DNA of 64,000 nt from Felis catus (taxonomy: Eukaryota). The position numbers were made by a program, and so were the translations under genes. Positions 60,700 to 64,000 of the stretch are shown here, piece by piece; within the stretch, counting starts at the first letter, position 1, and each line of letters begins with the position of its first letter. The stretch is taken from assembly GCF_018350175.1 (NCBI RefSeq), contig NC_058377.1:114762001-114826000 (forward strand). Reading direction: 5' to 3'. Under the pieces are notes generated by a model that saw only the letters and a list, made by a program, of their open reading frames with translations, searched no databases and had not been told where the DNA came from.

Positions 60700-61260
60700 C
60701 ACCAGCTCACTCTGACAGGGGCCCAGAATGCCCAGCTCCGGAGCAGGGCGGGCCTGAGGGCCAGGAACCTCTGAAAGGGCGGGTTTCCCAGCCGCTACGC
60801 GGGCCCTCGCGGCGGGAGAGGCTGGACTGAGACGGACTAACAGGAAGCCGAGTGCAGCTGGGCTGGCGGCTGCCGGTTGGGGTCCGCGGCCGCGTCTCCA
60901 GGGCTGCAGGCTGGCAGAGGGCAGGCGGGGCGGGGAGGGACCCCGAGGCCGTTGCCTGCGGTCCCACCACAGAGCTAGGGGTGTCCTGACTGGGCGGGAC
61001 CGGGAGTCCCGGCCCGCTCCGGGAACTCACCGGCGGAAACCTGGCGCCAGACGCGCACCGGGGACCGCGCACAGCCTGGAAGGCAGGTACGCGCGGGGCG
61101 CTGGCGGGCGGTGGGGACGGTGGGGGTCGGGGGTGCTCTCGGGGCCAGGACCAGCCCCCAGGCGGTCGGAGCTCTGAGTGTGCAGACCACTGCCTTCATC
61201 TTCCGACCGAGATGCGAACGGGAAGCGTGGGAGAACCCTCCTCCAGCGGTCACGAAGTGG
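60700..61260 (+). promoter_or_regulatory. CpG island, PIDD1 promoter and candidate non-coding exon 1 (donor CAG|GTACGC, exon ends 61086)
   Basis: CpG-rich block; consensus donor; next acceptor ctgcAG| at 61777 precedes the ATG exon. Confidence 0.65.
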
Positions 61261-61799
61261 GGTCCCATCACCCCACACACACACATTCACTTCTCTGACA
61301 CATGCGGGCACAATCACCCTGTTCCACGTCTGGGCCACTGCCTCCACGCGGCAGATAAGAGTCCTTGACCTCTGGTCGAAGCTCCTGGGTGTGAAGGCTG
61401 GAGGTGGGGCTGGACCCAGAACTCTGAAAGGGGCGGGGAAGGGAGACAGCCAGGATGAGCTGACAGCTCTAGGAGTCCCTTGTGCCAATGTCCAGAATCG
61501 GGATGTGAAGCCTCACTTCTCCCTCCTCTCCCACTACCCCCGCCCCAGCAGGTTTCCCAGGCTCCTCCGCACACAGGTCTCCCTGCGTGCTGCCCTCCTA
61601 GCTCTAGGGCGCTCATTTCCCAGCCCTATTCCAGCAAAGATCTGTGCAGCCGAGGCCCTGGGCTCTGTGGGTCGGCTGGCCTGGCTCAAGGACTCCCCTC
61701 CAGCCCGAGTCTCCATTCCCCTGAGCAGGAGGAGGGCCCAGTCCCACTCCCTCCCACTCCTCCCCCTGACTCTGCAGCCTTCCCAGGCCCTGCCTGAGC

Positions 61800-61828
61800 A
61801 GGCCTGCTTGGCAGGCTGGGACATGTCT
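61800..61828. promoter_or_regulatory. p53 response element in the PIDD1 5'UTR
   Basis: AGGCCTGCTT (one core mismatch), 9-nt spacer, then GGACATGTCT (perfect RRRCWWGYYY). PIDD1 is an established p53 target. Confidence 0.7.
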
Positions 61829-61853
61829 GGCCCCCGAGGACGGCCGGTGGGCG

Positions 61854-64000
61854 ATGGCTGCGGTGGCGGAGGGGCTGGAGCCCGAGGCAGCTGCTACAGA
61901 AGATGATGCACAAGATGCTGTAGATGCTGTGGGTGCTGTGGACGCAGAACCCGGGGACCCCCCTCTCCTGGTTGGGAGCCGGCTGAGCCTGGACCTGTAC
62001 CCTGGGGGCTGCCAGCGGCTGCGACACCTGTGTGCCCGGCAGTCCCCGCAGCTGCTGGAGGTGCAGTTCATGCAACTGAGCAGCCACGAGGACCCTCGGC
62101 TGCTAGAGACCACCCTGGCCCAGGTGCCGTGCAGCCTGCGGCATCTTCGCTCCCTGGTCCTCAGAGGTGAGCCCCACCTGGTCCCACCCCCTCACAGGGT
62201 GCAGCTGGCTGCGCCCGCGCTCCTGGACACCGCAGCTCCCAGCCGACCCTAGCGTGGCTGTCTTTCCTGGGGCAGGTCGTGGGTGATGGCTATCAGGCCA
62301 GACGAGCCTGCAGTGTCCGTCTGCTGGCGTCTCAGTCTGTCCCTGTGTGGGTGGGGTTAGAAGTCTGCGCCTCTGAGCGGGGACCTGACTCTGGCTCTGA
62401 GGGCCACATCTGCCTTCCCCCTTTCCCCTTTCCCCTTTCCAGGTGGGCAACAGCGGGATGTGCTGGGTGCCTGCCTCCGGGGCTCCCTGACCACACTGCC
62501 TGCTGGCCTGAGTGGCCTGACCCACTTGGCCCACCTAGACCTGAGCTTCAACAGCCTGGAGACGCTGCCGGGCTGCATCCCCCAGATGCATGGTCTGAGC
62601 ACCCTCCTGCTCTCCCACAACCACCTCTCAGAGCTCCCTGAGGCTCTGGGCGCCCTTCCCGCCCTCACCTTCCTCTATGTGACCCACAACTGCCTGCGAA
62701 CGCTGCCCAAAGCGCTGGGAGCCCTGTCCACCCTGCAGTGCCTCGATCTCTCACAGAACCTTCTGGACACTCTGCCCCCTGAGATTGGAGGCCTGAGCAG
62801 CCTCACCGAGCTCAACCTGGCCTCCAACCGGCTGCAGAGCCTCCCAGCCTCCCTTGGTGAGTAGGAGCCGTGGCCCTCTTGGCTCCCTGGGCCTGATGGG
62901 GAGTGCCTGGCCTCCACTCTCACGTGGGCCCCCTTGTCCTCCACAGGGGCCCCTGCACACACAGGCTTGGCCCACCTCAGAGCCTCCACCCCCCTAGGTG
63001 ACCGTTGCCTGCCTTCCCTTCCCCAGCTGTGGAGGCCCCTGCACAGACTTCCCAAGCCCCCTGAGTCTGGCCGGAGCGGTCAGAGACAGGACTAGTGCGA
63101 GTGTCCCGTCCTGGCCAGGGCTGGGGTGGCCCTGCGCGGCCCTCTGCTGGCCCTGAGCTGGCACCTGCCCGCAGCGGGGCTGCGGTCCTTGCGGCTGCTT
63201 GTTTTGCACAGCAACCTCCTGACCTCGGTGCCCACCAGCCTGGCCCACCTCCCGCTGCTCACCCGACTGGATCTGAGGGACAACCAGCTCCGGGACGTGC
63301 CCCCTGAGCTACTGGACGCCCCCTTTGTGCGCCTTCGGGGGAACCCCCTGGGCGAGGCCCCGCCTGCCCTCCCCAGTCCCCCAGGTAGGCCTGTTGCTGG
63401 GGGAGGTCAGGCCACAGACAGGCCGAGGGGGCAGGTGCCATGGCTGTTCTAACAGCTTTCCTGTCCCTCCATAGGGACACCGACGATCCCAGAAATGCCC
63501 AGACTGTTCCTGAACTCAGATTTGGACAGGTGTGTTGGGGAGGAGAGATGGGGCCAGACAAGCATGTCCTGGCCCTGTCACCCTGTCCCTGATGGACACC
63601 TTGCTCATGCCTCCGGGGTCTCCCACGGTTTCCTAGGGGTGCCCAACTCAGATGTACACATGCCTTCTGTGTCTGACTGGATGTCCGCCCTGTCATGCAG
63701 CTTCCTCGTGACCCCCCAAGGCTGCTCGGTGACCTTGGCCTGTGGCGTCCGCCTGCAGTTCCCTGCTGGGGCCACTGCCACCCCTGTCAGCATCCGCTAT
63801 CGACTACGGCTGCCGGAGCCGCGACTCGTCCCCTTGGGTCCCCACGACTCTCTGCTCAGCCACGTCCTGGAGCTGCAGCCCCACGGGGTGGCCTTCCAGC
63901 AGGCACGCCCAGAACAAGTCAGGGGTGGGGTGCAGGTGATGAGGGCCCAGGCCTGGGCCCAGCGCTCACGCCACCCTTGCCTGGCAGGAGGTGGGCCTGT
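61854..64000 (+). CDS. PIDD1: p53-induced death domain protein 1 (LRR repeats and start of ZU5 domain); 3' partial
   Basis: Coding exons 61854-62166, 62443-62856, 63175-63384, 63475-63529, 63701-63902, 63988->64000. MAAVAEGLEPEAAA...LSLDLYPGGCQ, LRRs (LxxLxLxxNxL), SFLVTPQGCSVTLACGVRLQFPAGA...LELQPHGVAFQQ|EVGL. Confidence 0.97.

Follow-up and report, generated by a model that had tools for sequence, protein, structure and literature searches.

The human PIDD1 gene carries a second, overlapping ORF whose product has been called altPIDD1, oPIDD1 and c11riboseqorf4 (Comtois et al., PMC11557682, 10.1101/2024.06.27.601030). The protein is reported to be stable and abundant, exceeding PIDD1 by about 40:1 in HEK293 cells, to be disordered, and to reside at actin structures and bind calpain-2 (10.1101/2024.06.27.601030). 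Its AUG, with G at -3 and T at +4, is passed by leaky scanning when PIDD1 is made (10.1101/2024.06.27.601030). Deletion or mutation of this AUG raises the amount of human PIDD1, and a better context lowers it (10.1101/2024.06.27.601030; 10.1101/2025.07.27.667088). The discoverers of the protein leave open whether it has any activity or whether its ORF mainly dampens PIDD1 (10.1101/2024.06.27.601030). GENCODE annotates altPIDD1 despite a reported absence of protein-level constraint (PMC11419116; PMC13275300), and a separate human PIDD1 uORF is mentioned in PMC13223753.

Comtois et al. describe altPIDD1 as conserved in placental mammals (PMC11557682). In the account of Nomura and Dohmae, upstream overlapping ORFs (uoORFs) are of variable length; oPIDD1 has 47 aa in the peregrine falcon and lengthens towards mammals, and human variants shorten or lengthen such ORFs (10.1101/2025.07.27.667088). 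That the altPIDD1 ORF exists, is repressive and varies in length among vertebrates is therefore already published. Here we describe the corresponding frame of the domestic cat, which is truncated. Like the uoORFs of Nomura and Dohmae, it is an out-of-frame ORF lying over the PIDD1 start; unlike their lengthening towards mammals, it represents a reversal within placental mammals, apparently by a datable single change. No report of the cat stop was found in the literature; per-species figures or supplements of the closest papers may hold a cat value, and “Felis” is absent from the main texts of PMC11557682 and 10.1101/2025.07.27.667088. We consider it probable that the stop is real and arose by what was likely one recent change, that the protein has likely been lost, and that its start likely still diverts ribosomes.

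Gene model and identity of the overlapping frame

The window is a 64,000-nucleotide stretch of Felis catus DNA, and all positions refer to it. The exon-2 peptide of its PIDD1 has 100% identity to a protein recorded under Felis catus, which is not independent of the window sequence, and 94-95% to the PIDD1 proteins of lion, tiger and bobcat. Fifteen coding exons, mapped on the window and its neighbour L002, reproduce the 913-aa cat PIDD1 record exactly. The intron at 62167-62442 (GT-AG) is used alike by the PIDD1 exon model and the spliced alternative frame; RNA contigs were placed on 60900-62500, and the exon 2/3 junction rests on the GT-AG signals and on the perfect agreement of the model with the cat protein.

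Upstream, one contig from the RNA run X18 (depth 2.1) covers 60903-61087 and then continues with the letters of 61816 onward. This single contig is weak but direct evidence for the joining of exon 1 to exon 2 (61086/61815), and it puts both start codons on one spliced mRNA. Given this junction, the altPIDD1 start is the first ATG of the modelled mRNA. The 5' end of exon 1 is set only by the reach of the same contig. In exon 1, a low-depth X18 contig has three adjacent differences from the window at 60949-60951, either an error or an allele. Another AG that might act as splice acceptor (61785-61786, within 61770-61790) lies 5' of the RNA-supported one; both retain the alternative ATG. The features of the locus are collected in Table 1.

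Table 1. Features of the 5' part of the cat PIDD1 gene, in window coordinates
Feature	Position	Strand	Evidence or remark
Non-coding exon 1	60903..61086	+	X18 RNA contig; GT donor 61087; no ATG inside
Exon 2, with both start codons and the premature stop	61815..62166	+	AG 61813-61814, junction contig, GT 62167
altPIDD1 start codon	61823..61825	+	First ATG of modelled mRNA; G at -3, T at +4
27-codon upstream overlapping ORF, still-translatable part of altPIDD1	61823..61906	+	19/27 identical to human altPIDD1
PIDD1 start codon	61854..61856	+	G at -3, G at +4
Premature alternative-frame TGA	61904..61906	+	Also seen in public contigs
Exon-2 remnant of the altPIDD1 frame, open	61907..62166	+	No ATG in the alternative frame
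9-bp tandem repeat, 3.2 copies, 3' of the stop	61914..61942	+	Extra unit common to most felids
PIDD1 Met73, felid-specific	62070..62072	+	First in-frame ATG past the uORF stop; weak context
Exon-3 remnant of the altPIDD1 frame	62443..62641	+	Old stop TGA 62639-62641, three codons past human end

The layout of the two frames agrees with the initial annotation of this DNA. The ATG at 61823 lies 31 nt 5' of the PIDD1 ATG at 61854 and out of frame with it; its frame runs for 27 codons to the TGA at 61904-61906 and, once the intron is removed, meets no other stop before the TGA at 62639-62641, a span of 180 codons.

That annotation had named the frame as the equivalent of altPIDD1, and the comparison bears it out. 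A HMMER search with the exon-2 part of the alternative frame, bearing an X at the stop, returned six proteins, the best of which was the human PIDD1 alternative open reading frame protein (UniRef100_C0HMD6, 171 aa, E 2e-22). Four of the six are relatives of the PIDD1 alternative frame, and the remaining two are P0151 and P0152; a word-based protein search with the alternative frame (X at the stop) gave no match among 379 candidates. The spliced cat frame is identical to human altPIDD1 at 107 of 171 aligned residues, including 88 of 143 after the stop. On this sequence evidence, the overlapping frame is the orthologue of human altPIDD1.

The resemblance extends to the gene, the upstream ATG in exon 2, the G at -3 and T at +4 (a suboptimal context), the use of another frame than PIDD1, the passage of the frame across exons 2 and 3, and a VGD/G caspase motif that is retained. 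Relative to its human counterpart, the cat frame carries six additional codons downstream of the stop, and its end lies three codons farther on. The uninterrupted ORF of about 170 codons reaching into exon 3 is not present: TGA occupies codon 28, and no ATG in the alternative frame was found after 61906. Thus, the cat frame is a truncated remnant of altPIDD1 and not a protein-coding member of the family.

Two of the alternative-frame homologues are known from one Logan contig each. P0150, which belongs to another mammal, ends about 94 residues past its Met, which is either a second independent truncation or the end of a contig. P0154 is a 49-aa fragment with Cys where the cat has its stop; it is unreliable, as its remaining changes resemble a wholesale C-to-T conversion. 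Metagenome contigs were scanned twice for PIDD1 DNA of mammals; one scan gave no match and the other a single locus, L003, which was rejected because it matches by chance, over 17 residues and in an unrelated frame.

The premature stop in the cat lineage

The TGA is on record outside the window. The sequence P0153, from five Logan/ENA contigs, is identical to the alternative frame of the window as read from 61178, and its last codon directly precedes the TGA. In a cluster of eight exon-2 fragments of PIDD1, five members are of the cat type (Gly27 and Arg57), and all five have Asp18, the residue that accompanies the stop. These five come from 7, 1, 1, 1 and 1 contigs, 11 in all, and four of them have a further residue, or a start, unlike that of the window, which marks them as separate assemblies. 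The three Ala18 members lack both Gly27 and Arg57. Further, all 39 sampled words of 61780-62170, likely including one that covers the stop, are present in 14 of 24 listed runs from six studies, one of which is a possible source of the sequence; run X20 (share 0.10) and four rows at 0.00 are set aside in this count.

These records bear on whether the stop could be an error of assembly or an allele peculiar to the individual that was sequenced. One observation leaves room for that reading: the sole contig placed over the site (X18, 61731-61930) has one letter that differs from the window, at a position that is not given. Of the four runs whose contigs were placed on 60900-62500, X11 and X20 gave none and X15 gave intronic contigs only. 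The five contigs whose ORF ends at the stop, the five distinct cat-type sequences with Asp18 and the 14 runs with every sampled word largely refute such an origin, to which we give hardly any credence. On these sequences the TGA is no assembly error. No cat allele with Ala18 was found among the members listed, a small sample; such an allele, or a wild Felis with Asp18, could be among the 23 proteins, out of 38 in the felid cluster, that lie outside that listing.

In PIDD1, the three bases of the stop are the third base of the Asp17 codon (GAT) and bases one and two of the Asp18 codon (GAT). Because it spans these two PIDD1 codons, the PIDD1 proteins of other species tell whether a stop is possible at this site. 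We aligned one PIDD1 protein for each of 71 named species, excluding additional isoforms and unnamed records; dog, mustelids, primates and murids are absent from this set. Residues 17-18 are Asp-Asp in the cat alone, Asp-Ala in 61 species, Asp-Thr in four, Gly-Val in two, Glu-Ala in one and gapped in two. Codons for Ala, Thr and Val cannot complete a stop, so TGA is excluded there in the species that have them, and the two gapped rows have no Asp-Asp pair at these residues. An alternative-frame stop at the codon-28 site is thus impossible in 70 of 71 species, a statement that holds for this site and not for the 28 other stop-capable sites of the frame. The mapping that the initial annotation had proposed accordingly places the TGA, among these species, in the cat lineage only. 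In the other felids, the alternative frame is probably open.

Residue 18 is Ala in all 11 other felids, both Prionailurus species among them. The first 172 PIDD1 residues of cat and Prionailurus differ at only two positions, Ala18Asp and Asp27Gly, which argues that the change is recent. The two lineages split about 6 million years ago. The ancestral PIDD1 codons were presumably GAT GCT, with TGC (Cys) in the alternative frame. A C>A change at 61906, after the split from Prionailurus, would have turned GCT into GAT, giving Ala18Asp in PIDD1 and TGC to TGA in the alternative frame; this one change would account for both observations and is the simplest path. Ala18Asp falls in the loose, acidic N-terminus of PIDD1. 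A silent CGA>TGA change as the origin of the stop was ruled out, as PIDD1 residue 18 is itself altered.

The 9-bp repeat does not fill the part that the initial annotation had given it. The stop was said to sit inside the repeat, and it lies just 5' of the repeat as called. Expansion of the repeat is no better as a source of the stop: the same extra unit occurs in 10 of the 11 other felids, which lack the stop-enabling residue, and also in the walrus, which has no stop. Nor is the Cys-rich stretch tied to the expansion, for two other alternative-frame homologues have it too.

In cats, lineage-specific gene loss is reported for UGT1A6 (PMC3065456). The loss of altPIDD1 is similarly of the nonsense type and can be placed in time on the felid phylogeny. 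Unlike the UGT1A6 case, it affects a single frame of an overlapping pair, and the locus, the transcript and PIDD1 itself are intact.

The open frame beyond the stop

The 152 codons that follow the stop are open, and the initial annotation had called the frame otherwise intact. Under three null models, which took new synonymous codons from the remainder of the gene, took them from the gene as a whole or shuffled those of the overlap, codons 18-169 stayed free of alternative-frame stops in 12.3%, 10.6% and 5.1% of 20,000 trials. Openness in 5-12% of controls is not significant in the cat genome alone. A second stop could be reached by 25 synonymous single-base routes, and 0.04-0.5 further stops are expected since the loss, at an assumed divergence of 0.5-2%. 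The intact downstream frame was therefore rejected as evidence of function. Recent loss, together with the constraint of PIDD1 on the same bases, would be enough to keep these codons open. Elsewhere in the gene, this alternative frame has another long open run, of 128 codons, which served as a control; it corresponds to PIDD1 codons 287-414 and extends from about 63400 in the window to past its end, in L002.

The stop-capable sites of the overlap give a somewhat different impression. The two stops aside, T is found at none of 28 such sites, whereas 20 of 112 sites outside the overlap have it (Fisher p 0.013; p 0.076 with the new stop counted); the test takes no account of amino-acid composition, and openness was itself the ground on which the region was chosen. 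This count hints at past selection for openness.

It bears, too, on whether the alternative frame was ever a functional translated ORF in felids. Had it merely been carried along by PIDD1, the stop would be meaningless, and the openness of the controls, the 128-codon run elsewhere in the frame and the reported absence of protein-level constraint (PMC11419116) would all be as expected. The alternative ATG is nevertheless the first on the mRNA and has the human context, and the shortage of T at stop-capable sites points the same way. Further, the Thr-Cys pair that spans this ATG in the PIDD1 frame is found in all 21 N-extended records that match the search pattern, a conservation compatible with an alternative ATG and not proof of one. 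We regard a frame that was never functional as quite improbable.

If the TGA were read through or recoded, for example from Cys to selenocysteine, full-length altPIDD1 would still be made. The presumed Cys of the ancestral codon, its place in a Cys-rich stretch and the open frame downstream are what speak for this alternative, which the initial annotation had raised. The sequence around the stop lends it no support. Among Rfam models, six matches were obtained at E up to 10 across the gene and 1.4 kb past its stop; none was a SECIS element, and all were far under the gathering score and not credible. The RNA fold around the stop is no better than that of shuffled sequences (z 0.22), with no stem-loop found. 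The leaky context for readthrough is the CTAG motif, and the cat stop has TGA TGC. A UGA conserved across species, as in selenoproteins and readthrough genes, is impossible in the 70 species discussed above, and the few further stops expected mean that openness needs no selection. Readthrough or recoding is, we believe, highly unlikely, and we retain the view that the protein has probably been lost.

The residual uORF and its implications for PIDD1

The initial annotation was right that the remaining 27-codon uORF overlaps the PIDD1 start: its stop falls 50 nt past the PIDD1 ATG, so that an upstream AUG, another frame and an overlapping stop give it the layout of a uoORF. We assume, by analogy with the human gene, that ribosomes initiate at 61823. 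Many would then halt at 61906 and be lost to full-length PIDD1, as those that end 50 nt past the PIDD1 ATG should be unable to scan back to 61854. PIDD1 would be made by leaky scanning past the alternative AUG, as in human, perhaps under somewhat weaker repression. Because no later ATG exists in the alternative frame, the codons beyond the stop would be silent, with only a 27-residue peptide possible. On the human analogy, this short overlapping uORF likely still represses cat PIDD1.

Several second-order effects of the shortening are possible. Repression of PIDD1 may be weaker: in a reporter, overlapping ORFs of 14-31 aa repress less than those of 182-244 aa (10.1101/2025.07.27.667088). Nonsense-mediated decay may be altered, since stops within about 21-100 codons of the start often escape it (PMC12776119) and codon 28 is near that start-proximal zone; the old stop lies 215 nt before a junction. 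Finally, ribosomes may reinitiate at PIDD1 Met73, the ATG of which lies 164 nt 3' of the uORF stop. Met73 is present in all 12 felids and in none of the 59 other species of the 71-species alignment, all of which have Leu. The stop itself overlaps an ATG (TGATG, 61904-61908), and third-frame ATGs at 61903, 61906, 61915 and 61924 open ORFs of 6, 5, 2 and 20 codons.

These effects raise the question of whether the shortening from 180 to 27 codons was selected because it retuned PIDD1 output, through weaker repression, escape from decay, or a Met73 form of PIDD1 without residues 1-72. The reporter data, the behavior of start-near stops and the felid-specific Met73 are in keeping with such a history. 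Against it, drift fixation of a single change suffices, the context of Met73 is weak and short third-frame ORFs open at four ATGs on or shortly after the stop, and codon 28 is on the edge of the decay-free zone, so that the direction of any effect is unpredictable. We find selection for retuning improbable. Most likely, loss of altPIDD1 was tolerated and became fixed by drift.

A tolerated loss favours the uORF, rather than the protein, as the object of selection. The reported stability, abundance and calpain-2 binding of human altPIDD1 count against its dispensability everywhere. There is, in our estimation, a modest chance that the cat is a natural altPIDD1 knockout in a fuller sense, with the protein deleted, the start kept and the short uORF retuning PIDD1 towards more product or the Met73 form.

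A different alteration of the same region is seen in the walrus, California sea lion and northern fur seal (P0007, P0075, P0083), which have Val at the position of the PIDD1 start Met (equivalent to 61854-61856) and PIDD1 models that extend far upstream; other mammals, true seals included, have Met there. This clade may have lost the main AUG and kept the residues that span the alternative ATG, which would be a mirror-image natural experiment.

As a single point mutation in a frame known for variable length and for want of protein-level constraint, the cat stop is useful, not startling. It qualifies the claim that altPIDD1 is conserved in placental mammals. Removal of the alternative start, the edit proposed by the discoverers, also de-represses PIDD1 (10.1101/2024.06.27.601030); the cat allele drops 152 of 180 codons yet keeps the start, and so is the cleaner experiment. 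It exists in a healthy species that has cell lines and close relatives without the stop. In hybrid cells of cat and leopard cat, both alleles would share one nucleus, which would reveal the effect directly. Cats would thus be a natural test of whether the altPIDD1 protein matters.
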